64,000 nt of DNA from Candidatus Omnitrophota bacterium (GCA_020058085.1 JAGVER010000005.1:2743-66742), one strand, 5' to 3'. Shown: positions 1 through 20,933, counted from the stretch's first letter. Notes: generated by a model not told the origin, from the letters alone. A program made the numbers and translations.

Positions 1-3000
1 GGCGGAACCTGGCAGGATATAGTTTCGAATTTAGATGTTGTTCCGGGGGCTAATACCTACCCCTGGACAGTTCCTGTTTCTACCAGCACAAATACAGTGG
101 TTAAGGTAAGTGATTCTTCCGCGCTTTCTAGCGTCTTTAAGCAGACCGGCGTATTTACTATTCGCGGTGGTTTTAGCTTTGTGCATCCAGTAAGTACAGA
201 CCGTTGGTTGGCCAATAGTTCTAAACTTATAGAATGGAATACATTGGGTAGTATTTCTTCCGTTTATATACAGTATTCCTTGCAAGGCGGGGCAGGAGGA
301 ATTTGGAATTTTGTTAATGACGGTTCACCTATTTCTAATGCTACAGAGCAGTATAGTTGGACAGTTCCTAACGCAATTTCGTCTCAGGCGTGCATAAAAA
401 TCACTGATATTAATGATCCTCAAGCTAGCAAGATTTCGGATATTTTTAATATCCATGGCGCTATAACTTTGACCCAGCCCAATGGACAGGAAAAATTAAA
501 AGCGGGCCAGTCTGATACCTCAAGCAAAATCAAATGGACAATGACTGGGCCTATTTCTAGCGTTGACTTAGCACTTTCTACTAATGGCCAGGCGGGAACC
601 TATACGACTTTTGCTGTCAATCAATCAGCTGCGCTTTTAGAGTATCCGTGGTCAGTGCCTACTACTACGCTTTCAAATAATTGTTTTATCCGTATCCGCG
701 ATTCAGGAGATAATTTAGTGGAGGATTTTTCGGATTTAGCCTTTAAGATTATGGAGAACTTCAATCTTACTTCACCTAATGGCACAGAGCAGTGGGTGGT
801 GAGTGATCCACACGATATCACTTGGAACTCTGTAGGCCTGGCAAGTTCTGTTAATCTTAAATATTCCATAGATGCGGCTCATACCACTTGGACTCCGATT
901 ATTTCACAGACCGTTAATGATGGAGTTCATCCTTGGACTATTCCACCCACAATTTCGTCTACTTGTCAGGTACGGGTTTCTGATTTTAATGACGACACAG
1001 ACTCCTATGATCTTTCTGACAGTGACTTCAAAATCCAGGGTAGGGTTACTTTAATTTCTCCTGTAGGCGGTGAAAAATGGGGTTGCGCTAGCCAGCAGTG
1101 GATACGCTGGGGTTGGGATGGAAACATTGCCAAGGTAGACATTCATTATTATAACGGTTCAACCTGGGTAGCTATTGATGAAGCTCAAGGGTATATCAAT
1201 ACTGGTGAGTACGAATGGACCATACCTACGATTTCTACCATTGCGGCAAAGGTGCGCGTAAGAGATAATGCTGATCCCATCAATGTTTACGATATTTCGG
1301 CTGTTCCTTTTAAGATAATGGGCAGGGTAGTGGTTCAGGTTCCTAATGGCGCAGAGGTCTGGTATGCAGGTAGTAATGCTGTCATTACTTGGACAAAATA
1401 TGGGCCTGCTTCTTTTGATACTGTCCGGATTGATTATTCTCTTGATGACCCGGCGTTTAATAGCCCACAGTCTATCACTACTTCTACACCCAATGATGGC
1501 AGCTTTGACTGGTTAAATATGCCTCAAGAGGCAGTTTCAGGTAAGGTCAGAATTCGTATTGCCAAACCCGATGATATTGCCGATGTTTCGGATATCTCCG
1601 ACGGCGATTTCCGCGTGCGCGTGCAGTTCACTTTAAATTCGCCTAATGGCGGACAGAAATGGAGCGTGGCAGGAGAACAAACAATTACCTGGGCACAGAT
1701 TGGAAATACACAAGGGGTAAAGTTTATTTATTATAGACAGGGTAATCCCGCGATTAATCAAACATTTACTCTTCCTTCGGTTTATACAACCGGGACTTGG
1801 AACCATACCTGGACAATACCTGATTTTATTCAGAATGATTTAATAATGCGCGTAGAAGACCCACTGGACAACGGAGCTTTTGATATTTCTGACGCTACTT
1901 TTAAGATTATGGCGGGATTTGTGGTAACTCGTCCGGATGCTTCTTCGGCAAATGAGGTAGATTATAAATGGTATATAGAAGACCCTGAAATTATCCGTTG
2001 GACTTACACCGGAACAGTTTCAGATGTTGGTATTTATTACTCTACTGTTGGCGGTATAGATGGCAGCTGGGTAGCTTTAACCTCTGTCCCTGCCAGTAAT
2101 TTACAATGGACCTGGCCATCTGTGCCTAACCAGATTACTACGCAATTAAAAGTTAAAGTGGGTTCAGCTACTGATGCCGATGCTTATGGTCTTTCTTTCG
2201 GAATGTCCAGGATCGGATCCAAATTTAATTTAACCGCACCTTTAGGGGCTGAAGAATTAATTGTGCAAGATCCTTTTACGATTATCTGGGCTAATACCGG
2301 CACAGTAAGCAAGGTAGACCTGCATTATTCTACGGATGATTTTGTTACACCCAGGGAAATAATTACGAATCTAAACAATGGAGCAAACGGTGGTTTTTAT
2401 AACTGGACCGTTCCTGATGTATTTAGTCATCCGGGCGATCCGCAGACCGTAAAAGTGCGGGTAAAAAGATACACAGATGATGATTCCTTTTTCTTTGATA
2501 TTTCTGGCAATTTCAGGATTAAAGGTAGTCTCTGGGTTAAATCTCCGATTTTAGATGATGAATGGGATATTGGCCAGCCCTATCAGATTAAGTGGGGTTG
2601 GAAGGGAACAATGCCGCAGGTAAAGATTGCCTACTCTACAAATGGTCTATCCGGCCCGTTCAATCCAATTCTGGAGAGTTACGGAATCCCTAATGATGGT
2701 AAAGTGGCAAATGGCGCCGGCTCCGGCGGCCCCGGTTCAGAATATACCTATACTTGGACAATTCCGGATGAAGCCACAGCCAATGCCGTAATTAGAATTC
2801 AAGATGAGCGTATCACAGAATCAGATATAGTTGATGATAGTGAAATTTTTCATATCATTGGTTACCTTGCCAATGTAAAAATAAAAGACCCGGCAAATGG
2901 CCAGGAGGTGAATAAATTAGCCGTAGCCAGTAATTATAATATCAATTGGGAGTGGGGTGGGTCAATGCCCGAGGTTAAAATAACCTATTCTATAAACGGG

Positions 3001-6000
3001 GATACCGGGCCGTTTAATCCCATTGTGGAGAATTATGGAGTTCCTAATGATGGTAAAGTGGCAAATGGCGCCGGCTCCGGCGGCCCCGGTTCAGAATATA
3101 CCTATACTTGGACAATTCCCGATACTATCTCGCCGAATTGTAAGGTAAGAGTAGCAGACCCTAGGGATGAAACTGTGTTTAGCGAATCTGCAATATTTAA
3201 AATTCAGGGCGCCTTTACTTTGATTACTCCGCTAGTGGTTGATAATGGGCAGGGTGTTTATGAATGCCGCTGGGTTACTAATGAAGTAAGAGAAGTAAAA
3301 TGGACTACTTTTGGAACAATCCCCAAGGTTGATTTGGTTTATGCTAAAGATTCTGATAGTGATGGTGATATCGATAATGCGGATTTTACGCAAGAAATTG
3401 CCATGGTAAATGGGACTAATATTAATAATCTTAATACATTTAATTGGACAATTCCCAATGAGCGCTTAGCCAATCCGCCTTATTATGTGGAAGCCAAGAT
3501 ACGTATTTATGACCATAATGATCATGATGTTTATGTTCAGGGCCCGGTTACCGCCGGTGGAGTGGATAACTTGAAGATTGATTACTATAAGATTACCTGG
3601 GATATTAGGGATCTGATTACTAACCGGCAGATCGAAGGCTTGACAGTAAACGATACCTCCGGCTGGGTAGCTACCGGGCTTGCTTCGCCTATCACTCGTT
3701 ATGTTCCTGCAGGTTTCTGGACAGCAGAATGGACAAATAAAGATTATGGGCCGATATCTGAATCTTATCTTGCAGGCTGGGATGAAGATGCTCAGATTTG
3801 GCGGGGTGACCGCACAATTTATCGCACTATGGAGACTTTGGTAGTGCATATCTGGCGGGCTTATTCAGAATTTTCTTATGATGTTCCGCCTACGGATAAA
3901 TTAAATATTACCAGCTGGTTGGAAAGAGATGGTTATTTGGTTTCCGGCGTTTTGATTACAGATGTAACTATCTATGATGGTTTTGATAAGATAAAGAGAA
4001 AGACTAACTTAGTAGACGAGGCCGCTAATAAATTCTATTATTATACTGATATCCCTCCCGGCGTAAAATTGTGGATAGGCGACCGCTTGGGGGAACTGCG
4101 CACTATGCAAAATGTAATCAATGATTGCGCGCCGTATAAAACCGGCGAGATGGCTATACCTGCTGACTTTGCCGGTTTCTTTATCCAGTCTTGGTCTCCC
4201 ACTTCCTATACTGCCTCAGGCACAAATCACAGTACTTTGCAATCAGGTAGAGTCTACGCAGTTGCCAGCTATATGGGTTTATCCACCGGCGCTACCTTTA
4301 CTACTCCCGTATCATTTACGGTTACGATACCCATAGCCATGGCTAATGTTGAAGCAGCGGTTACTGGAATGGTTGACACGGTTAACTCTGTTTTGGATAA
4401 GCCTATATCCGTAGTCAGTGCGGAGATACAGGCTCAGTTAGAGGCGCAAACCGGGATTATTGACCAAAAAATGACTGAGCAGACCCAGATAATTCAGGTT
4501 GCCACCAATAATATGCAGACGATCATTCAGGATGCGATGGTTAGTTTTGAGACTACGGTGCAGGATTCAATTACTCTCTTGAAATCAAGCGCGGCGACAG
4601 CAGAAGAGGCAGCCGGGCTTCTGGAGACCACTGCTAAAAAATACTCTTGGAATGCTATGGTCTCTCCTGATCCGGCACTTACCGGCGATACTGTTACGCT
4701 AACTGCCCAGGGTATGCCCGGGTTAGCTCCCGTGCTTAAAGTTTATAGCTGGGATAATAAGACTATTTTAGATAATATAAAATTGACTGAGGCCAGCGAG
4801 GGAGTCTATAATTATGAATTTAAGGTGGATGCCCGTTTTACCGCGGGAAAGGCGTATACTTATGTGGTTACTGAGCAGAGTACTGCCGGCATGGTCTCCG
4901 GCTCCGGAATGGTAGAAAGTATGAGTCTTACTACGATTGCTGGTTTAGCGGCAGCCGCGCCTGGAGCGGAAAGGGCTGCCAAGAAGGCATTAGATGCGAT
5001 TGCGGCAGTTGAGGCAGTATTAATCTCTAAGGAGCCGATGAATATTGCCCTTACCCTAAAGAACCTTAAAGATTCCGTAGACGCGCTTCCAGAGGTAATG
5101 ACAAAAGAAGGCCCTTCCGCTCGTCTGGCTCAAACAGTAAATGAGATATCAAACAGGATAAAGAAATTGGGCGGCGATGAGGGGTATGATTTTACTACTT
5201 TAGTAGGTGAAGCTATAAACGAGGCGCCGGCTATCAAAGAATTACGCAGCAAGGCGGATGCAATCAGGACATCTACCGATGTTTTGACAAATGTTTTTGA
5301 AGCCAAATTTGGCGGCGTAGATAAGCCTGTTGTTGTAACTTCACTGGAACCCGGAAGCGTCAAATTCCGGATTGTAGCGCTTAACCCTTCGAAGACCAAG
5401 ACGCAAAAAACAGAGATAAAATACTATTTGCCTGCTGAAGTAAAACCAAAAGATATTTCAGATACAGCGGGCTTAGATTTGGAATATGATTCCGAAAAGT
5501 CTATTTACTACGTATATAAACCTGATCTAGAACTTTCTCCGGGTGAGATGCGCGTATTTGAGGTAGAAGTAGAAGATATTTGGTTCTTAGAGCAGAATAA
5601 ACTTTTAGAACTAAAGAATCGCACTGATATAGTCCTTGGTAAGCTTGAGACAACGCCTTATTATACAAAAGCTAAAGAGATAGCCGATACTATTTATCCG
5701 CGCTTAGATGAGATAGCTCTTTCTCAAAAAGATGATTCAATCAATCGCGAACAACATATAGGTATCTATCGGCAAAACCTTTTGACCTTAGGTCAGGTTA
5801 AAGAAGATATCGCCCGAATGGAAAAGATTCTTGTTACTGCCGGAGGGCCACCTGCGCCTGAAATGTTAGCCAAGACTAAAATAAAGGCGGATGAGCCTTC
5901 AAAGACAATGACCTGGATAGTTATTTGCACAGTTATTATTTTTACCGGGCTCTTAGCTGGAGTTCTTTTCTTTACTTGGCACCGCCAGGCACGCATCAGT

Positions 6001-6078
6001 AAAGAAGAACTTTTATCTGCTAAAAAGTCTGCCTTTCCAGAATCTGGTTCTAAAGAAGAACCTAAAGAAAATTCATAA
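1..6078 (+). CDS. Giant repeat-rich cell-surface protein, 5'-truncated by the window edge. It has >=12 tandem ~95-118 aa beta-rich (Ig-like) repeats, non-repeat beta and helical C-terminal regions, and a single C-terminal TM anchor.
   Basis: Frame 1 is open from nt 1, and GGTWQDIVSNLDVVPGANTYPWTVPVS already fits the repeat consensus, so the GTG at 97 is not the true start. Repeat consensus is roughly [FL]xLxSPNGGExW...ITW...G....V.I.YS....W..I....NDG.Y.WT[IV]P.....C.[IV]R[IV].D......D.SD..F.I.G. The TM helix MTWIVICTVIIFTGLLAGVLFFTW (nt 5908-5979) is followed by the basic tail HRQARISKEE. Confidence 0.85.
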   Translation, partial: GGTWQDIVSNLDVVPGANTYPWTVPVSTSTNTVVKVSDSSALSSVFKQTGVFTIRGGFSFVHPVSTDRWLANSSKLIEWNTLGSISSVYIQYSLQGGAGGIWNFVNDGSPISNATEQYSWTVPNAISSQACIKITDINDPQASKISDIFNIHGAITLTQPNGQEKLKAGQSDTSSKIKWTMTGPISSVDLALSTNGQAGTYTTFAVNQSAALLEYPWSVPTTTLSNNCFIRIRDSGDNLVEDFSDLAFKIMENFNLTSPNGTEQWVVSDPHDITWNSVGLASSVNLKYSIDAAHTTWTPIISQTVNDGVHPWTIPPTISSTCQVRVSDFNDDTDSYDLSDSDFKIQGRVTLISPVGGEKWGCASQQWIRWGWDGNIAKVDIHYYNGSTWVAIDEAQGYINTGEYEWTIPTISTIAAKVRVRDNADPINVYDISAVPFKIMGRVVVQVPNGAEVWYAGSNAVITWTKYGPASFDTVRIDYSLDDPAFNSPQSITTSTPNDGSFDWLNMPQEAVSGKVRIRIAKPDDIADVSDISDGDFRVRVQFTLNSPNGGQKWSVAGEQTITWAQIGNTQGVKFIYYRQGNPAINQTFTLPSVYTTGTWNHTWTIPDFIQNDLIMRVEDPLDNGAFDISDATFKIMAGFVVTRPDASSANEVDYKWYIEDPEIIRWTYTGTVSDVGIYYSTVGGIDGSWVALTSVPASNLQWTWPSVPNQITTQLKVKVGSATDADAYGLSFGMSRIGSKFNLTAPLGAEELIVQDPFTIIWANTGTVSKVDLHYSTDDFVTPREIITNLNNGANGGFYNWTVPDVFSHPGDPQTVKVRVKRYTDDDSFFFDISGNFRIKGSLWVKSPILDDEWDIGQPYQIKWGWKGTMPQVKIAYSTNGLSGPFNPILESYGIPNDGKVANGAGSGGPGSEYTYTWTIPDEATANAVIRIQDERITESDIVDDSEIFHIIGYLANVKIKDPANGQEVNKLAVASNYNINWEWGGSMPEVKITYSINGDTGPFNPIVENYGVPNDGKVANGAGSGGPGSEYTYTWTIPDTISPNCKVRVADPRDETVFSESAIFKIQGAFTLITPLVVDNGQGVYECRWVTNEVREVKWTTFGTIPKVDLVYAKDSDSDGDIDNADFTQEIAMVNGTNINNLNTFNWTIPNERLANPPYYVEAKIRIYDHNDHDVYVQGPVTAGGVDNLKIDYYKITWDIRDLITNRQIEGLTVNDTSGWVATGLASPITRYVPAGFWTAEWTNKDYGPISESYLAGWDEDAQIWRGDRTIYRTMETLVVHIWRAYSEFSYDVPPTDKLNITSWLERDGYLVSGVLITDVTIYDGFDKIKRKTNLVDEAANKFYYYTDIPPGVKLWIGDRLGELRTMQNVINDCAPYKTGEMAIPADFAGFFIQSWSPTSYTASGTNHSTLQSGRVYAVASYMGLSTGATFTTPVSFTVTIPIAMANVEAAVTGMVDTVNSVLDKPISVVSAEIQAQLEAQTGIIDQKMTEQTQIIQVATNNMQTIIQDAMVSFETTVQDSITLLKSSAATAEEAAGLLETTAKKYSWNAMVSPDPALTGDTVTLTAQGMPGLAPVLKVYSWDNKTILDNIKLTEASEGVYNYEFKVDARFTAGKAYTYVVTEQSTAGMVSGSGMVESMSLTTIAGLAAAAPGAERAAKKALDAIAAVEAVLISKEPMNIALTLKNLKDSVDALPEVMTKEGPSARLAQTVNEISNRIKKLGGDEGYDFTTLVGEAINEAPAIKELRSKADAIRTSTDVLTNVFEAKFGGVDKPVVVTSLEPGSVKFRIVALNPSKTKTQKTEIKYYLPAEVKPKDISDTAGLDLEYDSEKSIYYVYKPDLELSPGEMRVFEVEVEDIWFLEQNKLLELKNRTDIVLGKLETTPYYTKAKEIADTIYPRLDEIALSQKDDSINREQHIGIYRQNLLTLGQVKEDIARMEKILVTAGGPPAPEMLAKTKIKADEPSKTMTWIVICTVIIFTGLLAGVLFFTWHRQARISKEELLSAKKSAFPESGSKEEPKENS
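2689..3119 (+). repeat. Two perfect 77-nt direct repeats (2689-2765 and 3043-3119), 354 nt apart, inside adjacent protein repeats of the giant gene
   Basis: cctaatgatggtaaagtggcaaatggcgccggctccggcggccccggttcagaatatacctatacttggacaattcc occurs identically twice. It encodes PNDGKVANGAGSGGPGSEYTYTWTIP in both repeat units, while the flanking sequence has diverged. Confidence 0.95.
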
Positions 6079-6101: not shown

Positions 6102-6335
6102 ATGTTTCTTGATATTACTGTTTTAAGTCCAAAAGAAATAGTTTTTGAAGGAAAGGCTAAAAGTGTTATTTTACCGGGCGAAAATGGCGTATTCGAAGTG
6201 TTAGTGTTTCATAAATTTATCTTAAGCCGGCTTATTTCCGGAAAAATCACGGTAGATGAACAAAGCTTTCCCATACGCAGGGGGATTGTTAAGGCCCGTC
6301 AGAATAAAGTCACCATAATTATGGAAGAAGGATGA
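6102..6335 (+). CDS. atpC: F-type ATPase epsilon subunit, N-terminal beta-sandwich only (77 aa)
   Basis: VILPGENGVFEVLVFHKFILSRL...NKVTIIMEE matches the epsilon N-domain pattern (PG.eG.fgvL..H.p....L ... VtIla). The C-terminal two-helix hairpin is absent. ATGA overlap with the next gene. Confidence 0.7.
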   Translation: MFLDITVLSPKEIVFEGKAKSVILPGENGVFEVLVFHKFILSRLISGKITVDEQSFPIRRGIVKARQNKVTIIMEEG

Positions 6336-6550
6336 GCAGGAATATAGCACTTATTGTAATCTTTGGGTTCTGTGTATTGGGCCCTTGTGCTGTATTTGCC
6401 GCGGGTAGTTTCGCCAGTATTAACGCGCTGGGAAGGAATCCTTCAAGCGCGCCTAAAATATTTACCGCGATGATTATCGCGCTTGTTTTTGCTCAAGCCT
6501 TAGCAATTATAGCAATGTTAATAGTTTTTCAATTGTTCTCGCAATCATAG
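6332..6550 (+). CDS. ATPase c-subunit-like two-helix membrane hairpin lacking any acidic residue
   Basis: 72 aa with two hydrophobic helices joined by the polar loop GRNPSS (cf. ARQPE). It aligns nearly colinearly (one-residue offset) with 72-aa bacterial c subunits. ALVFAQALAIIAML corresponds to GVALVEALPIIGVV, with Gln55 (CAA, nt 6494-6496) at the ion-binding Glu position. The whole protein has no D or E, and the helix-1 GxGxGxG motif is degenerate. Confidence 0.6.
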   Translation: MSRNIALIVIFGFCVLGPCAVFAAGSFASINALGRNPSSAPKIFTAMIIALVFAQALAIIAMLIVFQLFSQS

Positions 6551-6601
6551 GCAGATAGAGTATAATTATCGCAAAGAGAGCTTAATTAGGAAAGGTAAAA
6601 T

Positions 6602-7318
6602 ATGTTTATCGTCCCTTTAATAATATTCCAGATATTTATTTTTGTTATTTTGGTTTTTGCTTTACGTAAAATAATGATGAAAAATGTGGTTTCGGCTACA
6701 AGGCACATTAATGAAATGGGCCAGGATTATGATAAAAAAGAAGAGGAGATAAGCAGGCGGTTTGAAGAACTAAAGCAGGAATCAGAGGAAACGGTTAGAA
6801 AAGCGCAACAAGAAGCGCAAGAGTTAAAGGCAGGGATTATTAAAGAAGCTGAAAGCGAAAGAGATAAAATGTTAAAACAGAGCAGGTCTCAAAGCGATGA
6901 GATAATTAAGCAGGCAGATAAGTCAAGGCAGCTTTTGCTCTCTGAAATAGACGAAAGAATAGCCAAAGAAGCGGTTAACAAAGCCTGTGAATTAATCCAG
7001 GAGACTTTGCCGGAACAGCTTAAGCAGAATGTGCATAGGTATTGGGTAAAAGAACTTATTAACGCTGGATTTAGCGAATTAGAGCGTTTACGCATTCCCA
7101 AAGATATCGACGAGGTAAAGATTATTTCAGCCTTTAATCTGGATGAAGAAGAGCGCAAAAATCTGTTTGATAAATTAAAAAACACGCTGGGTTCCGGGGT
7201 TAAATTTAAAGAAGAGATTGAACCAAAGGTAGTCGCAGGGATTATCATTACTATAGGCAGTCTTGTCCTAGACGGAAGTTTAAGGAATAAGATTAAGGAG
7301 AATATTAGGAATGCCTGA
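6602..7318 (+). CDS. ATPase peripheral-stalk b subunit fused to a delta/OSCP-like C-terminal domain
   Basis: N-terminal TM helix (MFIVPLIIFQIFIFVILVFAL), then a long charged coiled coil typical of subunit b. The C-terminus KVVAGIIITIGSLVLDGSLRNKIKENI matches the delta-subunit C-terminal signature (v.gG..i.iGd.viDgSvr..L..L). No separate atpH gene is present. Confidence 0.65.
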   Translation: MFIVPLIIFQIFIFVILVFALRKIMMKNVVSATRHINEMGQDYDKKEEEISRRFEELKQESEETVRKAQQEAQELKAGIIKEAESERDKMLKQSRSQSDEIIKQADKSRQLLLSEIDERIAKEAVNKACELIQETLPEQLKQNVHRYWVKELINAGFSELERLRIPKDIDEVKIISAFNLDEEERKNLFDKLKNTLGSGVKFKEEIEPKVVAGIIITIGSLVLDGSLRNKIKENIRNA

Positions 7319-8804
7319 TTCGGTATTAAAGGAAACAAGTATTAGAAGTGCGACCCGATTTGAAGTTAGAGAGATTGGACAAGTTCAGTCGGTGCGTAAA
7401 TTTATTCTTATTGTCAAGGGCCTGCCATCTTGTATTAATGGCCAGATTGTGGAGCTCGCAAATGGCACATTAGGATTGGTGATGGGTTTTACCGAAGATA
7501 AAGTCCAGATTTTAGTTTTAGGCGATGCTAGTTCTATCCGCGCGGGAGATGAGGTTTATAATAAAGGAAGGTCTTTGAATTTAGCTGTAGCAGACGCATT
7601 TTTAGGGCGGATAATCAACAGCCTTTGCCAGCCACAGGATGGCTTAGGCCCTATAGTGGTAAGCGAATTATATCCTGTATTTAAAGTGGCGCCGGGAGTT
7701 ATGGACCGCGCGCCTGTAAAAGATACCCTTGAAACAGGAACACTGATTCTGGACGCGATTATTCCTATAGCCAAGGGGCAGCGTCAGCTTCTTATAGGAG
7801 ATAGGCTTACCGGTAAGACAACGGTCGCGATTGACGCTATATTAAATCAAAAAGGCAAGGATGTTATTTGTATTTATTGCTGTATCGGGAAACCGTACTC
7901 CAGCTTCTTAAAGATTTTGGATATTCTAAATGAAAAAGATGCCTTACAATATACAATAATAGTCAGCGGTGTAGCATCTGTATCTACGGGAGAGCAATAT
8001 CTGGCCCCTTATACCGCCTGTATGCTGGGCGAATATTTTATGAATAAAGGCAAAGATGTTTTAGTTGTATTTGATGATTTGACTAAGCACGCGTGGATAT
8101 ATAGGCAGATATCTCTTCTTCTTGAGCGCGCGCCCGGAAGAGAGGCATACCCCGGAGATATATTTTATATTCATTCCCAATTAATGGAGCGCGCAGGTTT
8201 TCTTAAGCAGGAACTAGGTAGCGGATCAATGACATTTTTCCCCATTGTAGAAATACTTCAGGGCGATGTTACCGGTTATGTTTCCACAAACTTAATCTCT
8301 ATGACTGACGGGCAGCTGTATTTCTCTACCACACTTTTTAATAAAGGGTTTAAGCCGGCAATTGATTTTGGCCTTTCAGTTTCCCGTATCGGAAATAAGG
8401 CGCAATGGCCGGCGATGAAAGATTTAAGCAAATCTTTACGCCTGGATTACCTCCAGTATAAAGAACTTTTACAAATGACGCAATTACGGACTAGCGGGTT
8501 ATCCAAAGAAGCAGAGTTACGCTTAAAAAGAGGAGAAGCAATAAATCAACTTATTATTCAGGATAAAAATATCCCTGTTTCCTTGGAGGAGCAGATAATT
8601 TATCTGGTTGCTTTAAGCCGCGGCGTGCTTGATAATTTGCCGGTAAGTAAAATTAAACAATTTAAACAAGAGATCCTCAAATTCTTAGATAAGCGTTATC
8701 CGGGATTTTCTTTAAGCCTTCGTAACAGTAAGGCATTGACAGATGAAACCAAGATACAGATAGAGGATGTTTTGAGGGAGTATTTTAAGGAAGCGATAAA
8801 GTAA
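7311..8804 (+). CDS. atpA: F-type ATPase alpha subunit
   Basis: 497 aa. P-loop GDRLTGKTTVAID, LLLERAPGREAYPGDIFYIHSQLMERA, GLSVSRIG. Confidence 0.9.
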   Translation: MPDSVLKETSIRSATRFEVREIGQVQSVRKFILIVKGLPSCINGQIVELANGTLGLVMGFTEDKVQILVLGDASSIRAGDEVYNKGRSLNLAVADAFLGRIINSLCQPQDGLGPIVVSELYPVFKVAPGVMDRAPVKDTLETGTLILDAIIPIAKGQRQLLIGDRLTGKTTVAIDAILNQKGKDVICIYCCIGKPYSSFLKILDILNEKDALQYTIIVSGVASVSTGEQYLAPYTACMLGEYFMNKGKDVLVVFDDLTKHAWIYRQISLLLERAPGREAYPGDIFYIHSQLMERAGFLKQELGSGSMTFFPIVEILQGDVTGYVSTNLISMTDGQLYFSTTLFNKGFKPAIDFGLSVSRIGNKAQWPAMKDLSKSLRLDYLQYKELLQMTQLRTSGLSKEAELRLKRGEAINQLIIQDKNIPVSLEEQIIYLVALSRGVLDNLPVSKIKQFKQEILKFLDKRYPGFSLSLRNSKALTDETKIQIEDVLREYFKEAIK

Positions 8805-8807
8805 CCA

Positions 8808-9653
8808 ATGAAGACACTTTCAAACATAAAAAAAGATTTAGAGTTTAACCGCGGACTTTCTTCTTTAATCGAAGTGTTAAAAACTATGGCCGTGGCGCAA
8901 TACAGGATATTAGAGGAGAGGTTAAAGATTTTCGAGAAATTAATTGTATCCATAGAAGATTTTTTTGAGCATGTCGATATCACCAAGATTAATCATCCGT
9001 ATTTAATCCCCCAAAATAGATTTCAAGGAGTAGTGGCAATAACTTCTGACAGTGGGCTTTTGGGCGGCCTTAACATGCAGGTCGTCTCCGGCGCGCTTTT
9101 GGAATTAGAAAAGACCCCCGGCAAGCTTATTATTATCGGCGAACGCGGTAAACTTTATGTACGGGAGACTAACATTCCTTTTGTCTCTTTTGGCGGAGTT
9201 AAGGATGATGAGCGCTATGCCCAGGCCATGCAATTAAGGGATTATCTATTAGCTAAGGTTCTTGACGGCTCTTTCGGGTCTTTAAAGATAATTTATCCGC
9301 ATCCTGTATCTTTTACTGTGCAGCACGTGGAAACAGTTTCATTCCTGCCTTATAAGCCGAATTTAGTTAAGGAGAATACCGCTCTCCAAGCTTATCCAGA
9401 AGTTATTTTAGAATCAAGGGTAGGTGATATTATGCAATATTTGGTGTATACCTGGATGGGCCAGAAAATTTATGAAATCTTCGGCTTAAGCCGCTTGGCA
9501 GAATTTGCTGCCCGTTTTGTGCATCTTGAAGGAAGCCATCAGAGATTAAGAGAAATGGATACTAAAATTAAATTGGAGTATTTTCATGTCAGGCACGAAC
9601 TTATTGACCGTAATATGCGTGAGCTTTTCGCGGCAAGATTAGCTTTTTCTTAA
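8808..9653 (+). CDS. atpG: F-type ATPase gamma subunit
   Basis: 281 aa lying between alpha and beta. The N-terminal helix IKKDLEFNRGLSSLIEVLKTMAVAQY and C-terminal helix RHELIDRNMRELFAARLA fit the gamma coiled coil. Confidence 0.75.
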   Translation: MKTLSNIKKDLEFNRGLSSLIEVLKTMAVAQYRILEERLKIFEKLIVSIEDFFEHVDITKINHPYLIPQNRFQGVVAITSDSGLLGGLNMQVVSGALLELEKTPGKLIIIGERGKLYVRETNIPFVSFGGVKDDERYAQAMQLRDYLLAKVLDGSFGSLKIIYPHPVSFTVQHVETVSFLPYKPNLVKENTALQAYPEVILESRVGDIMQYLVYTWMGQKIYEIFGLSRLAEFAARFVHLEGSHQRLREMDTKIKLEYFHVRHELIDRNMRELFAARLAFS

Positions 9654-9656
9654 TAT

Positions 9657-11057
9657 ATGAAAGAAAATAAAGATATTATAATAGGGCATGTATCCGCGGT
9701 TCAGGGGCCTGTAGTGGATGTTAAATTCCAGAATTCAGTTGATGTGCCTAATATATTCAGCGTTATTCAAACCCAAACCATAGATAAAGAAAAGGTTGTT
9801 TTAGAGGTAGCAGAACATCTTCCGGGAAACATTGCCCGTTGCATTGCTATTAACTCGACGATAAATCTTCAGCGTAATCAGGAAGCCTACTCAAGTGGCG
9901 CTACTATTCAAATTCCTACAGGCGATATGCTTTATGGGCGCATAATAAATATGTTGGGGGAGCCCATTGATCAGAAAGGCGAAATTAAAAGTTCAGAGAG
10001 ATCTAATATAAGAAAAGCAGATATGGGAAGCCAGGTTAGATTAAAAAAAGATTTCCATAGGAGCTTTGATGTAATGGAGACCGGGATTAAAGTTATTGAT
10101 CTTCTTTTTCCCGTGGTTAAGGGAGGCAAAACCGGGATTTTAGGTGGCGCGGCTTTGGGAAAAAGTATTTTAACCCTGGAAATTATTCAGCATATTGTAA
10201 AAAGGCATCAGGGTAGCTGCGTATTTGTGGGTGTCGGTGAGCGTATCCGCGAGGGAAACGAGCTTTATTATGAATTATTAAAACACGAAGTTTTAGCTAA
10301 AACAATGATGGTCTTTGGCCAGATGAATGAGCCTCCGGGAGCCCGTTTCGGCGTGGCAATGACAGGTATTACCTTGGCTGAATCTGTTCAAAGGAAGAAT
10401 CAGGATGTCCTGCTTTTTGTGGATAATATTTTCAGGTTTGTTCAGGCAGGAGCAGAGATATCTACCCTTTTAGGCCGCGTTCCATCGGAGACAGGTTATC
10501 AGCCTACCTTGATTTCAGAGGCGAGTGAATTTCATGAGAGGATACGTTCTTCACAGGAAGCAGGCGGCGCGATTACTTCTTTTGAAGCAGTATATGTTCC
10601 TGCCGATGATTTAACTGATCCGGCAGTAGTAGCTATTTTTAGTTTCTTGGATTCAATTCTGGTACTTTCACGCGAACGCATACAATTGGGTTTGTATCCT
10701 GCGGTAGATCCCTTATTATCGTCCTGCGCTAATTTGGATATTGATATCGTCGGCAGAAAACATTTTGATATTTCTCAAGAGGTAATCAGGATTTTTCAGA
10801 GATACGAAGAATTAAGGCGCATTGTTTTAGTTGTGGGAATCGATGAATTATCGTCCACCGACCGCATTCTTTATGAACGCGCCAGAAAATTACAGAATTT
10901 TCTTACCCAGCCATTTTTTGTCGCGGAGACTTACACCGGTAAAAAGGGAGAGTATGTCACTTTGCCCCAGACTCTCGAAGGTTGTGAAAGGATTATCGCG
11001 GGAAGAGTTGATTCTATCCCCGAGGAACAATTTTATTTGATTGGTGTTTTGCCCTAA
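9657..11057 (+). CDS. atpD: F-type ATPase beta subunit (catalytic)
   Basis: 466 aa. P-loop GGAALGKS, VGVGERIREGNELY, DVLLFVDNIFRFVQAG, GRVPSETGYQPTL, YVPADDLTDPA. The DELSEED region reads DELSSTD. Confidence 0.92.
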   Translation: MKENKDIIIGHVSAVQGPVVDVKFQNSVDVPNIFSVIQTQTIDKEKVVLEVAEHLPGNIARCIAINSTINLQRNQEAYSSGATIQIPTGDMLYGRIINMLGEPIDQKGEIKSSERSNIRKADMGSQVRLKKDFHRSFDVMETGIKVIDLLFPVVKGGKTGILGGAALGKSILTLEIIQHIVKRHQGSCVFVGVGERIREGNELYYELLKHEVLAKTMMVFGQMNEPPGARFGVAMTGITLAESVQRKNQDVLLFVDNIFRFVQAGAEISTLLGRVPSETGYQPTLISEASEFHERIRSSQEAGGAITSFEAVYVPADDLTDPAVVAIFSFLDSILVLSRERIQLGLYPAVDPLLSSCANLDIDIVGRKHFDISQEVIRIFQRYEELRRIVLVVGIDELSSTDRILYERARKLQNFLTQPFFVAETYTGKKGEYVTLPQTLEGCERIIAGRVDSIPEEQFYLIGVLP

Positions 11058-11059
11058 AG

Positions 11060-11527
11060 ATGATTAGAAGTCCCAAAAGATTAGGTGATATCTTAATAGA
11101 GAAAGGCTTGATAACCCAAGAAGTGTTAGATGATGCTTTACGCGAGCAGCGGGAAACAAAGGAATTCTTGGGCGCAATATTATTAAGAAAAAAACGGATC
11201 AAAGAAGCGGATTTGTTAACGGCGCTATCTGAACAATTTCATATTCCACTTTTTAGTTTGAAAGATAAATATATTGATTGGAATTTAGTCAAGGGCTTCA
11301 GCGCTTCGCTAATTTTAGATTACAGATGTTTCCCTGTAGCCAAAGATGATTGGTCAATAACCATGGCCATAACTAACCCCTTGGATATCCGGGTACTAAA
11401 GAGGGTCGAAGATGAAGCAAAGGGATTAAGATTGAAATTAGTTTTGGTTTCCGAGGGAGATATCAACGATTCTATTAAGAGGTACAATAGCTATCTAAGG
11501 GGTAATATTTCTAAACTATTCGAGTAA
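11060..11527 (+). CDS. Stand-alone GspE/MshE N-terminal (MshEN / T2SSE_N) domain protein, predicted c-di-GMP receptor
   Basis: 155 aa. Residues 7-30, RLGDILIEKGLITQEVLDDALREQ, match the 24-residue MshEN motif RLGxx[LVI][LVI]xxG[LVI][LVI]xxxxLxxxLxxQ exactly. After a 5-residue spacer comes a second copy, FLGAILLRKKRIKEADLLTALSEQ, with G->K at one position. Confidence 0.8.
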   Translation: MIRSPKRLGDILIEKGLITQEVLDDALREQRETKEFLGAILLRKKRIKEADLLTALSEQFHIPLFSLKDKYIDWNLVKGFSASLILDYRCFPVAKDDWSITMAITNPLDIRVLKRVEDEAKGLRLKLVLVSEGDINDSIKRYNSYLRGNISKLFE

Positions 11528-11530
11528 AAT

Positions 11531-13684
11531 ATGCCTAAGAAACTAGATATAATTTTATCAGAAGCATTAATTGAAAAAAGGTTAATCGCGCAGAATGATA
11601 TAGGCAATTTTCTTAAAGAGGCTGAGTCATTGAATGAAAGCCTGCAGCAAATTTTAATTAAACGGGGCATTTTTCCTGAAAAAGATATTTTGAATATTTT
11701 GGGGGAAAAATTAAAGTTATCCAGCGTTAACTTAAGAGAGATCACAATTGATAAAGCTGTTTTAGCAAAAGTCCCGGTCAAAATTGCCTTGTATTATAGA
11801 TTCGTCCCGGTTCAAATAAAAGACAGGGTTTTAACTATTGCGGTTTCTTGCCCGTTAGAGATAAAAATCCAGGATGAGGTAAGGGCGCAGCTGGGTTATG
11901 ATATTGAGACGGTTCTCTCTTCTTCGGGCGATCTCCTGGAATCCCTGAAGAAATATTATGGCTTGGCGGCCGATACCTTAGAAAAGATTTCTTCTAACGT
12001 CCAGCAGGCCGAAGCATCCCACGAAACGCATTTTGAGACAGTAGAGGATATTGAAAAGCTGGCAGGAGACGCTTCGGTAATAAAATTGGTCAACCAGATA
12101 ATTCTGGAGGGATTCAGGAAACGCGCTACCGATATTCACATTGAGCCTTATAGAGAAGGGGTCTCTTTACGTTATCGCATTGACGGGTTGCTTTACGACG
12201 CAAATTTTCCTCCCGAAATAAAGAATTTCTTAAGCGCTATAATTTCCCGTATTAAGATAATGTCCAATTTAAATATTGTTGAGCGTAGGCTACCCCAGGA
12301 TGGCAGGGCGATAGTAAAGGTTGGAGAGCAGATGCTGGATCTGCGTATTTCCACAATACCTACGCCATTCGGGGAAAGTGTGGTAGTAAGGATCCTGCCT
12401 ACGCAGATGCTTTTTAGCCTGGAGAAGCTTGGGCTTGGGAAAAAAGATTTGCAGGTTTTTGAGGGATTAATTAAGAAACCCCATGGTATAATTTTTGTTA
12501 CCGGTCCGACAGGGAGCGGAAAGACTACTACCTTGTATGCCTGTTTAAGCAGGATTAATACCAAAGAACGTAAAATTATTACCATTGAGGATCCTATTGA
12601 GTATGAAATGTCCGGGATTACCCAGATACAGGTTAGTCCGGATATCGGCCTGGATTTTGCCCGGGGATTACGCAGTATTTTAAGGCATGACCCGGATGTA
12701 ATAATGGTAGGAGAGGTCAGGGATTTAGAAACCGCAGAAATAGCTATTCGCGTGGCCTTGACCGGCCACCTTGTATTTTCCACTCTCCATACTAATGATG
12801 CTGCCAGCGGTATCACCAGATTAATAGACATAGGAGTCGAACCGTTTCTTTTGGCTTCCAGCGTTGAGGCATTCATTGCCCAGCGTTTAATAAGATTAAT
12901 TTGTCCTGATTGTAAAATTGAGGATAACGCCGCTCCCATAGAATTAAAAGAGCTGATTGCCCGGGACATTTCCTTGAAGTCCTTAAATGAGGTTAAGATA
13001 TTTAAAGGTAAGGGTTGCCCGAGTTGCAACTTTACCGGATTTTTCGGCAGGACCGCAATTTACGAAATACTCCCGGTGGACGAAGCAATGAAGGATTTAA
13101 TTTTGAAGAAAGCCACTGCTACTCAGATAAAAAGGCTTGCTCTTTCAAAAGGGATGCGTACATTGCGTCAGGATGGTTGGCATAAAGTAATTCTCGGAGC
13201 GACCACCCCTGAAGAAGTGATGAAAGTTACTTCTGCCGAAGAGTATACGGAAGAAGATAAAAATGCCCGGTTCCTTCCCGCCGGTTCTTTAAAGCCAGTA
13301 ACTTATCAAGTCCCAAATCCCGATGAGAAAAGGGCGTATCTTCGCTTAAACAGCAAAGTGAATTTACGTTATAAAGTATTTGATACGGCAGAGAAGCTGC
13401 TCAAAAAAGGATTTAAGCCGGAAGAGTTTAGCGTTACAAATAATCTTTCCGCGGGGGGCCTGGTCTTTTTTTCAGACGATATGCTGGCTGTTGGTTTGAT
13501 TTTAGAATTAACTATAGAACTGCCTGATAGCGAGGAGCCGATAGGATGCCTGGCTAAAGTGGTAAGGCTGGAAGAGAGGCAGGATCATAAAGGTTATAAT
13601 GTTGCAGTTTGTTTTCTGGATATAACCGGCGCAGGAAGATCAAGGCTAGGAAGGTACATAGAATTAGAAACGGAGATGATATAA
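11531..13684 (+). CDS. GspE/PilB-family secretion ATPase with N-terminal T2SSE_N domain and C-terminal PilZ domain
   Basis: 717 aa. Walker A GPTGSGKTTT, Asp/His boxes, tetracysteine CPDC...CPSC. The C-terminal ~120 aa carry the PilZ motifs KRAYLR (RxxxR) and NLSAGG ([DN]xSxxG). Confidence 0.9.
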   Translation: MPKKLDIILSEALIEKRLIAQNDIGNFLKEAESLNESLQQILIKRGIFPEKDILNILGEKLKLSSVNLREITIDKAVLAKVPVKIALYYRFVPVQIKDRVLTIAVSCPLEIKIQDEVRAQLGYDIETVLSSSGDLLESLKKYYGLAADTLEKISSNVQQAEASHETHFETVEDIEKLAGDASVIKLVNQIILEGFRKRATDIHIEPYREGVSLRYRIDGLLYDANFPPEIKNFLSAIISRIKIMSNLNIVERRLPQDGRAIVKVGEQMLDLRISTIPTPFGESVVVRILPTQMLFSLEKLGLGKKDLQVFEGLIKKPHGIIFVTGPTGSGKTTTLYACLSRINTKERKIITIEDPIEYEMSGITQIQVSPDIGLDFARGLRSILRHDPDVIMVGEVRDLETAEIAIRVALTGHLVFSTLHTNDAASGITRLIDIGVEPFLLASSVEAFIAQRLIRLICPDCKIEDNAAPIELKELIARDISLKSLNEVKIFKGKGCPSCNFTGFFGRTAIYEILPVDEAMKDLILKKATATQIKRLALSKGMRTLRQDGWHKVILGATTPEEVMKVTSAEEYTEEDKNARFLPAGSLKPVTYQVPNPDEKRAYLRLNSKVNLRYKVFDTAEKLLKKGFKPEEFSVTNNLSAGGLVFFSDDMLAVGLILELTIELPDSEEPIGCLAKVVRLEERQDHKGYNVAVCFLDITGAGRSRLGRYIELETEMI

Positions 13685-13688
13685 CAAT

Positions 13689-14903
13689 ATGGGCACGTAT
13701 AAATATCGCGCAAAAAAAGGTTTTAATGAAGTTGTGGAAGGGTTAATTGACGCGCAGTCTGAAAAAGAAGCGATTGAAAAGTTAAGCTCTATGGAGTTGT
13801 TGCCCTTACACTTGGAAGAAGCCCGTGCCAGTAAATCTAAATCCATTTCTTTAGTCAAATTTCGCGGTAAAATTAAATCACGCGAAATTACTATTTTCAG
13901 CCGTCAATTAGCCAGCCTTTTGAAATCCGGCGTAGCTATTTTAAACGCCCTTAATATTATCAATGATCAGTCTGATGATTCTAACCTGAAAAATATACTT
14001 TATAATATTAGCAATGCAATAAAAGATGGCGCTACATTTTCTTCGGTGCTTGCGCAATATCCCCGGGTTTTTTCTCCTCTTTATGTTGCCATGATCCGCA
14101 CGGGAGAAGGCAGCGGGTCGCTTCCGGATGTGCTTTTAAGGATATCTGACTATCGCATCAAGCAAGAAGAGATGCTTTCGCGTTTTCGTATGGCCCTTGT
14201 TTACCCGATACTCATGGCAGTTGTGGGCCTGGGCACTATAATTTTTATGCTCACATTTGTAATGCCAAGATTAATGAAGATATTTTTGAGCATGGGGCAG
14301 GATTTACCTTTACCTACCCGTATTTTAATTGCGATAAGTGGTTTTCTTTGCCATAGCTGGTTTTGGGTAGTCTTAATTTTGGCAATCATAATTTTAATTC
14401 TTCGTAGAGAACTAAGGACAAAGTCCGGAAGGCTATCTTTGAGCCTGTTTAAATTACACCTTCCTTTGTTCGGAAAGCTTATCCTTAAAGCTGAACTTGC
14501 CCGTTTTTGCCGTACCCTGGAATTACTCATAAAAGATGGCATCACTATATTAAAGGCGATTGAAATAGCTGTTCCGGTAATTGACAACGAAATAATAAAG
14601 AACCATTTATTGCAGAGTTATCAACAACTACAGCGCGGCGGTTCTTTTGGTAGGAGTTTAAGAAATGTAAAATTATTTCCTGTTTTCATGAGTAACCTTA
14701 TAGGAGTAGGCGAAGAATCAGGCAGGCTTGATGAGGCCTTGGCGGAAGTGGCAGGTAATTACGAGCGGGATACTGACGAAGCAATTAAGGTAATGAACAG
14801 TCTCTTAGAGCCGGTGATGATTTTAGTAATGGGCTTAATCGTAGGTTTTATCGTGGTTGCAATGATTCTGCCCATATTTGAAATCAACATGATGGCTAAA
14901 TGA
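13689..14903 (+). CDS. GspF/PilC-family inner-membrane platform protein
   Basis: 404 aa with a duplicated T2SSF domain architecture, three TM segments, and a position directly after the GspE-like ATPase. Confidence 0.9.
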   Translation: MGTYKYRAKKGFNEVVEGLIDAQSEKEAIEKLSSMELLPLHLEEARASKSKSISLVKFRGKIKSREITIFSRQLASLLKSGVAILNALNIINDQSDDSNLKNILYNISNAIKDGATFSSVLAQYPRVFSPLYVAMIRTGEGSGSLPDVLLRISDYRIKQEEMLSRFRMALVYPILMAVVGLGTIIFMLTFVMPRLMKIFLSMGQDLPLPTRILIAISGFLCHSWFWVVLILAIIILILRRELRTKSGRLSLSLFKLHLPLFGKLILKAELARFCRTLELLIKDGITILKAIEIAVPVIDNEIIKNHLLQSYQQLQRGGSFGRSLRNVKLFPVFMSNLIGVGEESGRLDEALAEVAGNYERDTDEAIKVMNSLLEPVMILVMGLIVGFIVVAMILPIFEINMMAK

Positions 14904-15757
14904 TAAAGAAAGTAAAGATTTTACTTATTTTCCCGCTGCTATTTTTATCTTTATCTATAGCTAAGGCGGAAGAGTGGCAGGAGTTAAAGAGTGAACATTT
15001 TATCGCTTATTTTACCCGGGATGAAAAATTCGTCAAAGAAGTATTGGATAAAGCAGAGGTTTATTATCGTAGCATCGCTTTAGATTTAGGGTATTCTAGA
15101 TACAAAGAATTCTGGACTTGGGATAAAAGAGTAAAAATTTATATTTATCCGGACCATGCCTCCTATTTAAAGGCAACGGGTCAACCTGACTGGTCTCAGG
15201 GGGTAGCGGATTACAGGGCTAAACAGATAATTAGTTTTATCTGGAGCAGGGGATTTCTTGAATCGCTTCTTCCTCACGAAATGGCCCATTTGATTTTTAG
15301 GGATTTTGTGGGTTTTGAAAGCGATATACCCCTCTGGTTAGATGAAGGCGTGGCGCAATGGGCAGAAGATGTAAAAAGAGGGACAATGAAGAGGATGGTC
15401 AAGGATGCTTATAATCAGAATGGATTATTGAGTATGAATGATATGATGAAATTAGAGATTAGGAATTTAAAGGATAAAAACCTGGTTTTTATCCGGCCAA
15501 CACGCACAAAAGAAGGCAACGACGGAGTTGTAATTTTAAATAGCACTAATTTAGTTAATCTTTATTATTTAGAGGCCGCTTCACTAGTAGATTTTCTTAT
15601 AGCAAAATATGGCTCTGATAGTTTTGCTAATTTGTGTCGTCAGCTGCGCGACGGCAAGCAGATAGAAGAGGCCTTAACTTTTACTTATCCTAGTTCTATC
15701 CGTAGTATCGGTGACTTGGATAATCAGTGGAGAGATTATATAGCGAGGCAGTATTGA
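14900..15757 (+). CDS. Secreted zinc metalloprotease-like protein (peptidase MA-like, HExxH)
   Basis: Signal peptide MIKKVKILLIFPLLFLSLSIAKA. HEMAH at LLPHEMAHLIF and a downstream LWLDEGVAQWAE (gluzincin-type third ligand). ATGA overlap with the GspF-like gene. Confidence 0.6.
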   Translation: MIKKVKILLIFPLLFLSLSIAKAEEWQELKSEHFIAYFTRDEKFVKEVLDKAEVYYRSIALDLGYSRYKEFWTWDKRVKIYIYPDHASYLKATGQPDWSQGVADYRAKQIISFIWSRGFLESLLPHEMAHLIFRDFVGFESDIPLWLDEGVAQWAEDVKRGTMKRMVKDAYNQNGLLSMNDMMKLEIRNLKDKNLVFIRPTRTKEGNDGVVILNSTNLVNLYYLEAASLVDFLIAKYGSDSFANLCRQLRDGKQIEEALTFTYPSSIRSIGDLDNQWRDYIARQY

Positions 15758-15770
15758 CCAGGAGGGATTA

Positions 15771-20924: not shown

Positions 20925-20933
20925 GGTATGTGA

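Follow-up and report, generated by a model that had tools for sequence, protein, structure and literature searches.

Omnitrophota are widespread, uncultured and ultra-small, and their presumed life as epibionts or predators raises the question of how they hold and act on other cells. A 64,000-nt stretch from Candidatus Omnitrophota bacterium (GCA_020058085.1 JAGVER010000005.1:2743-66742, hereafter the window) gives this question a concrete form, since its first 6,078 nt hold the 3' part of a giant gene for an immunoglobulin (Ig)-like tandem-repeat protein, and this gene is the first of an F-type ATPase/type IV pilus (T4P) operon, a point absent from the first-pass annotation. What does a giant surface protein do at the head of such an operon? 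Three computed results frame our answer: the protein is exported and anchored with a type I topology, it forms an elongated all-β fibre, and it belongs to an operon with linked ATPase and PilB/PilC genes. The explanation that we favour, and hold to be about evenly balanced as a whole, is that the exported, anchored fibre is an arm of the ATPase/pilus apparatus. By itself, an Ig-repeat adhesin of giant size that bears a conversion tract is nothing unusual; the interest lies in the partnership of fibre, anchor, ion-blind ATPase and pilus.

The exported fibre and its anchor

Frame 1 of the + strand has no stop codon from base 1 of the window to 6076-6078 and comprises 2,025 codons. A homology search recovered a 100% identical database protein of 2,925 aa (P0001), from a 72.9-kb JGI contig, which carries the gene at least 2.7 kb further upstream, to at least 8.8 kb in total, so that the original reading of at least 2,025 codons with a 5' end outside the window holds. 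By a repeat hidden Markov model (HMM), P0001 contains 21 units in total and begins mid-repeat, with a half unit at residues 1-50; it is thus also incomplete, probably cut by the end of its contig. In many species-representative loci the homologous open reading frame (ORF) was still open at the edge of the full 10-kb upstream flank, which gives proteins of at least 4,100-4,480 aa, and family members in an exhaustive protein library reach 6,457-6,941 aa, with 27 to ~36 matched repeat stretches in relatives of 3,600-6,900 aa. The closest homologs all came from Omnitrophota metagenome-assembled genomes. A profile search against 1.84 billion representatives returned 15,336 matches, a number dominated by the two repeats in the profile and no measure of family size. 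The GC content of the giant gene is slightly above that of its neighbours (0.42-0.45 vs 0.37-0.43). Its features are the following (TM, transmembrane; pLDDT, predicted local distance difference test):

1..6078, + strand: giant fibre gene, 3' 6,078 nt, 2,025 codons and stop (ORF and homology)
1..3555, + strand: Ig-like repeats, 12 units overall (repeat HMM; fold model)
1-165, + strand: partial repeat unit, cut by the window edge (repeat HMM)
178-456, 469-753, 766-1038, 1051-1320, 1333-1620, + strand: complete repeats (repeat HMM)
1633-1911, 1924-2214, 2230-2523, 3244-3555, + strand: complete repeats (repeat HMM)
2536-2859, + strand: repeat R10 (repeat HMM)
2881-3207, + strand: repeat R11 (repeat HMM)
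2689..2765, + strand: conversion tract, R10 copy, donor type (exact repeat, codon test, model, orthologs)
3043..3119, + strand: conversion tract, R11 copy, the converted repeat (exact repeat, codon test, orthologs)
3583..4320, + strand: two non-repeat β-sandwich domains, C-terminal-region residues 10-255 (AlphaFold2 model; no Pfam match)
4324..4644, + strand: Ala/Gln-rich helix of ~100 residues, C-terminal-region residues 257-363 (AlphaFold2 model)
4651..4917, + strand: conserved Ig-like β-sandwich, C-terminal-region residues 366-454 (model, conservation)
4918..4965, + strand: Ala-rich linker SLTTIAGLAAAAPGA (conservation, low pLDDT)
4966..5310, + strand: helical bundle 1, C-terminal-region residues 471-585; split-type relatives stop just past it (model)
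5323..6075, + strand: anchor module (model, split relatives, conservation)
5329-5571, + strand: anchor β-sandwich (AlphaFold2 model)
5593-5892, + strand: helical bundle 2 (AlphaFold2 model)
5908-5979, + strand: TM helix, aa 1970-1993 (hydrophobicity)
5980-6075, + strand: cytoplasmic tail of 32 aa with an S-A-F-P-E motif (conservation)

The repeat HMM, built from the protein itself, found 12 units in the window, 1 partial and 11 complete ones of 90-109 aa (nt 178-3555); the count first given thus stands, while the units are somewhat shorter than the ~95-118 aa estimated at that time. An AlphaFold2 model of R10-R11 (pLDDT 79) consisted of two 7-stranded β-sandwiches, and its Foldseek neighbours in the PDB were ICAM-1, CD4, RAGE, scFv and complement MG domains, at probability 0.95-1.0. 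At the level of the predicted structure, this confirmed that the repeats have an immunoglobulin-like β-sandwich fold, and the modelled protein fits a bacterial Ig-like-fold tandem-repeat fibre, which is a fold class and not one Pfam family. The first-pass annotation had proposed modules of Ig-like or Kre9/KNH type and had called for domain HMMs and structure prediction on single repeats; the structural half of that proposal is upheld, and the family half is not. Among sequence families, the repeats match Kre9/KNH best (PF10342, at NCBI 'Ser-Thr-rich GPI-anchored membrane family protein'), but their scores stay below threshold here, at 17.7 bits for the whole protein against a gathering threshold of 24.6, and at 14.4-18.6 bits in 4 of 10 single repeats and zero in the others. 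Precomputed PF10342/PF21471 matches are present in many homologs of the giant protein. Searched against Pfam and NCBIfam, the whole protein, the single repeats and the C-terminal sub-domains gave zero matches above threshold.

Beyond the repeats, an AlphaFold model of the C-terminal 840 residues, based on a 44-sequence alignment (pLDDT 78.5), shows in order two β-sandwiches, a ~100-residue helix, an Ig-like sandwich, a helical bundle, a β-sandwich, a second bundle, the TM segment and a disordered tail, and so displays the non-repeat β domains and Ala/Gln-rich helical stretches that had been read from the DNA. The region had no relatives in Pfam, NCBIfam or PDB sequences (one insignificant match in the PDB). 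No enzyme fold was present in the model, whose Foldseek neighbours are generic β-sandwich strings and include archaeal S-layer proteins made of Ig-like domains. Homologs of this region are nearly all from Omnitrophota, and it is kept in more than 100 loci. The most conserved segment of the family is the Ala-rich linker (TTIAGLAAAAP, 79% mean identity), which joins the Ig-like domain to helical bundle 1; its conservation despite predicted disorder suggests a putative processing or partner-binding site. Residues 1970-1993 are the only strongly hydrophobic segment of the protein, in agreement with the single TM helix first placed at 5908-5979, and are followed by the 32-aa tail. Mean identity is 68% in the TM helix and 67% in the anchor sandwich vs 38-55% in the ectodomains, and the F-P motif of the tail was found in 92 of 99 unique anchors.

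The orientation of the protein in the membrane was read from its relatives. In ~19 of 97 classifiable loci (~20%) the last ~245 aa are encoded by a separate gene. The separate anchor product of locus L006 is 43% identical to the window C-terminus (E = 2e-72) and has its own signal peptide; L005, L067, L070, L074 and L075 likewise have a separate anchor gene with a signal peptide. Complete giants, among them those of L067 (3,646 aa), P0170 (6,457 aa), P0176 (6,910 aa) and others, begin with Sec-type signal peptides. Signal peptides on both the separate anchors and the complete giants place the bulk of the protein beyond the cytoplasmic membrane, with the 32-aa tail in the cytoplasm, and by homology with these complete relatives the window protein is predicted to be an exported type I membrane protein. 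The earlier description as "tail-anchored" was therefore right about the external bulk and the C-terminal anchor and wrong if taken as the strict tail-anchored class: a single TM helix lies near the C-terminus, but the relatives have signal peptides and an extracytoplasmic bulk. The break between fused and split forms falls between predicted strands 1 and 2 of the anchor β-sandwich (window 5323-5355, junction KPVVVTSLEPGSVKFRIVAL), the split-type giant protein ending at '...GG.D.PVV.V...', and its position suggests that in split lineages the fibre may be held to its anchor by strand complementation. We are strongly confident of the architecture and type I topology of the protein.

Repeats R10 and R11 bear the trace of a recombination event. 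The perfect 77-nt segment noticed at the outset (2689-2765 = 3043-3119) is exactly 77 nt long and not extendable, and it sits within a 189-nt direct repeat of 82% identity with a spacing of 354 nt. At degenerate sites with identical residues, the same codon was used in 24/24 cases inside the tract vs 10/26 outside (Fisher p = 1.2e-6), and R10 and R11 are 56% identical, every other repeat pair being at 18-40%. Within the tract lie the codons for a Gly-rich loop, PNDGKVANGAGSGGPGSEY, and for the next strand, YTWTIP; this loop is the sole low-confidence part of each domain in the R10-R11 model. At the tract the closest orthologs, P0003 and P0121, read 'GPFNPI..NDGIV..' in R10 and 'NGFA.ETQN..VGTVPNAAGAGG..' in R11, whereas the window has R10-type sequence in both repeats, the mark of gene conversion from R10 to R11 and not of a whole-repeat duplication. 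Gene conversion, which the first-pass annotation had proposed as one of two possibilities beside unequal crossover, is thus borne out. Since 77 is also a common de Bruijn k-mer size in metagenome assembly, alternative assembly paths through R10/R11 are possible.

Of 57 loci of the family, 9 had exact intragenic repeats of 40 nt or more, with recurring spacings of ~1.14 kb and 2.0-2.2 kb and, in one case, a length of 2,259 nt. Recombination among the repeats thus appears to be recurrent in the family and not universal, and with one tract in the window and so few loci affected, the suggested length or antigenic variation mechanism was not borne out. The 2,259-nt repeat, an exact direct one with a spacing of 2,217 nt inside the homologous giant gene of L016 (143-4618), reflects a very recent ~7-repeat block duplication or else an assembly artefact; L013 has one exact repeat of 214 nt and L012 several. 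Upstream of the window, residues 1-284 and 708-980 of P0001 are 35% identical over 290 aa (E = 2e-36), a similarity that reads as an old higher-order duplication of a ~7-repeat block. The fibre repeats would thus diversify through gene conversion and segmental duplication, like those of other repeat adhesins.

The ATPase and pilus operon

The stop codon of the giant gene lies 23 nt before the ε gene, with no terminator-like site in this gap; promoter and terminator scans otherwise stayed at background level. From 6102 to 20161 the genes overlap or are 2-52 nt apart, and the run ends at ~20.2 kb:

6102..6335, + strand: F-type ATPase ε, 77 aa (domain match)
6332..6550, + strand: F-type ATPase c, with Gln at the ion-binding Glu position (alignment to solved c-rings)
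6602..7318, + strand: b/δ fusion, peripheral stalk (domain match)
7311..8804, + strand: ATPase α (domain match, PDB match)
8808..9653, + strand: ATPase γ (domain match)
9657..11057, + strand: ATPase β, with P-loop, GER and DNIFRF motifs intact (motif check)
11060..11527, + strand: stand-alone MshEN-domain protein
11531..13684, + strand: PilB/GspE-type ATPase with N-terminal MshEN and C-terminal PilZ
13689..14903, + strand: PilC/GspF-type platform protein
14900..15757, + strand: exported peptidase MA-family protein
15771-16184 and 16162-16557, + strand: pilin/pseudopilin genes
16535-17119, + strand: GspJ-like
17052-18113, + strand: GspK-like
18114-19601, + strand: PilM-PilN fusion
19598-20161, + strand: PilO/GspM-like

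We searched for the same arrangement from both ends of the operon. The C-terminal alignment of the fibre, used to scan 185,579 species-representative genomes, gave 68 loci, nearly all labelled Omnitrophota and 33-61% identical. All of the ~65 with enough downstream DNA had the anchor, then ε-c-b/δ-α-γ-β and then PilB/PilC, an order that holds down to 33-35% identity of the fibre C-terminal region; six homolog contexts examined singly all showed the cluster or a variant of it. Two exceptions, L005 and the distant lineage of L075/L076, are described below. In the reverse direction, an alignment of the γ subunit was run against metagenome contigs, and its best 80 matches were taken as 80 loci. 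The anchor was directly upstream of ε in 29/29 of the loci with at least 3.8 kb of upstream DNA, and PilB was found downstream in all 32 with enough downstream DNA. The anchor gene also adjoins ε where it is split from the fibre. We judge it very likely that the fibre gene is a functional part of the operon.

The two exceptions have peculiarities of their own. In L005 (10819-14713) the fibre gene is followed by two anchor paralogs, one of them without a TM helix, with an unassigned 193-aa gene between them, and then by ε and c; b/δ-α-γ-β give way to an exported protein of 304 aa and a HEAT-repeat protein of 831 aa, and the pilus genes are on the opposite strand. In L075 (5829-9970) and L076 (1328-5469), a diversity-generating retroelement (reverse transcriptase, bAvd and an FGE-sulfatase-type target) and a Y1 transposase lie directly upstream of a giant-plus-anchor pair that is free of ATPase genes.

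The ATPase itself departs from the respiratory pattern at several points. Both α and β keep their P-loop, GER and DNIFRF motifs, and α finds its best sequence matches in the PDB among canonical F1 α subunits (E = 1e-146). In the window there is no room for a subunit a, the only gap being 6550-6602, and in the anchor-to-β interval of the 99 family loci, the part of the genome covered by this search, no unassigned ORF of at least 100 aa had at least 3 hydrophobic segments. The c subunit of the window has a Gln aligned exactly to the ion-binding Glu of solved c-rings; among 100 unique c subunits of the family this position is Q in 46, E in 38, A in 6, T in 4, F in 2, S in 2, V in 1 and L in 1, so that the ion-binding carboxylate is absent from 62%. 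This carboxylate is required for ion translocation, with which such variability is incompatible. Moreover, the 77-aa ε consists of the N-terminal β-sandwich only and has no inhibitory C-terminal domain, the part whose helices inhibit hydrolysis in bacterial F-ATPases. Both marks of a chemiosmotic F1Fo complex, a subunit a at the locus and a Glu/Asp in the c subunit, are thus missing here, and together with the carboxylate loss in most of the family and the short ε this led us to judge the ATPase non-chemiosmotic. The gene content suggests a rotary engine that hydrolyses ATP and has a membrane rotor and a stator stalk but lacks an ion path. Two other places for the anchor were considered and dropped: as a replacement for subunit a, because it has a single TM helix and no conserved Arg, and as a second peripheral-stalk b subunit, because the soluble portion of the anchor faces the wrong side.

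On the pilus side, MshEN and PilZ are known cyclic di-GMP (c-di-GMP)-binding domain types, and their presence indicates that the apparatus may be under c-di-GMP control; L002 and L003 each have two stand-alone MshEN genes. No secretin gene was found in the cluster or anywhere in the window. The zincin-like peptidase MA gene lies between PilC and the pilin genes in many loci and is absent from several; its presence was tried as a correlate of the fused or split form and dropped, since it is found with both. Two small exported proteins (20433-21287; 163 and 117 aa, the first without a Pfam match) end the cluster, before the housekeeping genes that fill the rest of the window: rpsO, pnp, ftsK, rodZ, riboflavin genes, ligA, a Xer-type recombinase (Phage_integrase family) and the dcw cluster. 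Of the 52 ORFs of 150 aa or more in the window, 48 lie on the + strand, and each 2-kb bin shows a positive GC skew, a strong strand bias consistent with one replichore arm of a small genome.

What the fibre may do

In the explanation that we favour, a Sec signal peptide, deduced from the complete relatives, would take the chain out of the cytoplasm, where at least 21 Ig-like domains would form a long rod. The rod would join a conserved stalk (two β-sandwiches, the ~100-residue helix, the Ig-like domain and a helical bundle), and the stalk would lead into an anchor module, in which a β-sandwich and a helical bundle precede the TM helix and the 32-aa tail with its x-F-P-x motif. The fibre would act as the extracellular adhesive arm of the ATPase/pilus apparatus, docked to the membrane machinery by its conserved TM helix and F-P tail; the docking partner would be the ion-blind F-type rotary ATPase and/or the PilB/PilC pilus platform, and the energy of ATP would serve to deploy, tension or move the fibre while the bacterium attaches to its host or prey. 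The parts of this proposal differ in strength. An adhesive or host-contact role is rather probable. Direct mechanical coupling between fibre and ATPase is a tentative proposal and on balance doubtful, hinted at by the conservation of TM helix and anchor sandwich above that of the ectodomains, by the F-P tail motif and by the abutment of anchor and ε. The boldest version, in which fibre and anchor would be the mechanical output of a new bacterial motor and the torque or conformational cycle of an ATP-spun c-ring would pass through the TM helix and tail to a fibre of more than 100 nm, is improbable, if attractive: it would allow ultra-small diderm bacteria an ATP-driven gliding, reeling or grappling on prey.

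Several observations weigh against the fibre being an arm of this apparatus. The loci retrieved with γ, being its 80 best matches, are a sample biased to close relatives of this cluster. L005 keeps ε and c and has no α/γ/β nearby, and in the P0092 lineage (L075/L076) a 2,082-aa giant and an anchor homolog (E = 7e-51) have no ATPase within 10 kb, which shows that fibre and anchor do not need an ATPase next to them. Omnitrophota have two membranes, and a dcw/peptidoglycan cluster lies in the window itself; the proposal offers no explanation for how a fibre anchored in the inner membrane would cross the outer one, from a cluster without secretin. This crossing and the ATPase-free distant relative are the main arguments against coupling. 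Finally, no ligand-binding head is known for the window protein, whose N-terminus is missing; the only complete head, that of L067 (aa 1-487), is nearly without homologs and retrieved 3 weak matches when used as a query for full-length relatives.

The reading that best survives beside ours is that of a passive giant adhesin or spacer, which would bind host or prey and be merely co-transcribed with the pilus and ATPase genes, passing neither force nor signal. We regard it as possible, though rather unlikely. Strings of Ig-like domains without a catalytic domain are typical of passive adhesins, the distant relative with fibre and anchor dispenses with an adjacent ATPase, and repeat number and sequence vary by recombination as in ordinary adhesins. 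Yet a two-way linkage (~65/65; 29/29) that extends down to 33% identity exceeds what co-regulation usually preserves, a mere anchor would not need a TM helix and tail motif more conserved than the ectodomains, and the anchor gene always stands directly before ε, even when split from the fibre.

An envelope scaffold or coat, that is, a periplasmic ruler or S-layer-like layer that would organise the pilus and ATPase without contact with other cells, is distinctly improbable. It would agree with anchoring in the inner membrane of a diderm, with a cluster devoid of secretin and with the Ig-like archaeal S-layer proteins among the Foldseek neighbours; however, at ~4 nm per Ig domain, at least 21 to ~36 domains would far exceed the periplasm, and the wide differences in repeat number among species are unexpected for a ruler. 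More improbable still is a secreted cargo, which would be a substrate of a system like the type II secretion system (T2SS), with its pseudopilus, released from the anchor by, e.g., the peptidase MA, with the ATPase unrelated. The GspG/J/K-like pseudopilins, the GspE/F-like genes and the exported metallopeptidase of the operon would suit such a system, as would the unanchored giant protein of split-type relatives, but the peptidase accompanies fused and split types alike and is absent from several loci, the break past the first strand of the anchor sandwich suggests that both parts stay associated, and the invariant ATPase would be left without a role. That the gene is a pseudogene remnant or a misassembled repeat region has a negligible probability: the tract length equals a common assembly k-mer size and the contig breaks inside the repeats, but the frame is uninterrupted over 6 kb with all domains intact, the C-terminal region is conserved in more than 100 loci, and both tract copies lie within complete, in-frame Ig domains.

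The fibre as an arm of the ATPase/pilus apparatus is thus the reading that we retain, and it defines candidate partners: the anchor TM helix and tail, the c-ring, b/δ, PilC and PilB-MshEN-PilZ. It also makes testable what an F-type rotary ATPase does once freed from ion transport.

Comparison with known systems

Seymour et al. (2023, PMC10066038) described loci with ATPase and type IVa pilus (T4aP) genes in Omnitrophota, which they judged non-respiratory, linked to symbiosis and connected with attaching to host cells or moving on them. The locus of the window is of the same type, with α (7311-8804) and β (9657-11057) within 10 kb of PilB (11531), PilC (13689) and the pilins (from 15771); the assignment rests on this co-location of ATPase and pilus genes within 10 kb in Omnitrophota. 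In the main text and searchable supplements of PMC10066038 we found no mention of the fibre/anchor gene, of the missing subunit a or of the c-ring change, and the 'giant ORFs' treated in those parts of the article are longer than 20 kb and handled separately. The ATPase/pilus locus is therefore already published, while the fibre-plus-anchor gene and the ATPase defects are apparently undescribed. The published locus had no known surface component, and a giant Ig-domain fibre with a dedicated anchor is now proposed as its invariant one.

Giant proteins of the same phylum ('Archaeovorins', dockerin-type and others) have been reported in two preprints (West-Roberts 2023, 10.1101/2023.11.21.568195; 10.64898/2026.06.07.730766). 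They share with the window family a great length, frequent T2SS/T4P neighbours and a proposed contact with prey, but are scaffolds of 25-147 kaa, of multi-enzyme, dockerin or TSP3/WD/HEAT type and with many TM helices, whereas the window family is of 3.6-6.9 kaa, purely Ig-like, with a single TM helix and tied to an ATPase. Repeats of the PF10342/PF21471 type and the link to the ATPase go unmentioned in both. The second preprint reports that F-type α and β are frequent in Omnitrophota, γ is rarely called and V/A-type ATPases are common, which is consistent with a divergent, non-respiratory F-type set.

The adhesins SiiE, LapA and MpIBP, exported by type I secretion systems (T1SS), are likewise rods of tandem Ig-like domains that run to thousands of residues and vary in repeat number by recombination. 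They differ in having C-terminal RTX/T1SS signals, outer-membrane retention and no TM helix; the window family has an N-terminal Sec signal (in relatives), a C-terminal TM helix in the inner membrane and ATPase and T4P neighbours, and a Pfam scan of the giant protein gave no RTX/HemolysinCabind match. Another comparison is SprB of Flavobacterium, a giant repeat adhesin in a diderm, moved by the rotary membrane motor of the type IX secretion system (T9SS), GldLM. That motor runs on the proton-motive force and SprB, a substrate of the T9SS, carries a sorting domain at its C-terminus, whereas the candidate motor here would be driven by ATP, no T9SS genes accompany it, and a Pfam scan of the giant protein found no Por_Secre_tail (PF18962), a domain that, among the homologs, occurs only in repeat-sharing Bacteroidota proteins without the C-terminal region.

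The closest functional parallel is the gliding of Mycoplasma mobile, in which the giant surface proteins Gli123, Gli349 and Gli521 (123-521 kDa) work with an F1-like α/β motor (PMC6935860, PMC7052211), a machinery whose origin the authors of PMC6935860 proposed to be 'F1-ATPase plus adhesin'. Giant surface proteins and a non-chemiosmotic F1 paralog are common to both systems, a likeness of function and architecture and not of sequence. M. mobile has no outer membrane and its motor is without c and b/δ, whereas the operon of the window keeps c, b/δ, γ and ε. Moreover, the fibre gene here is in the same operon as the ATPase, unlike in M. mobile, where the motor locus is reportedly separate from the gli genes. 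If coupling is absent, the fibre would still stand for a new family of adhesins specific to the phylum and serve as a good marker of such loci; if it is real, Omnitrophota would hold a second, independently evolved machine for motility or attachment on the ATPase-plus-adhesin principle of M. mobile, here with the membrane rotor retained.

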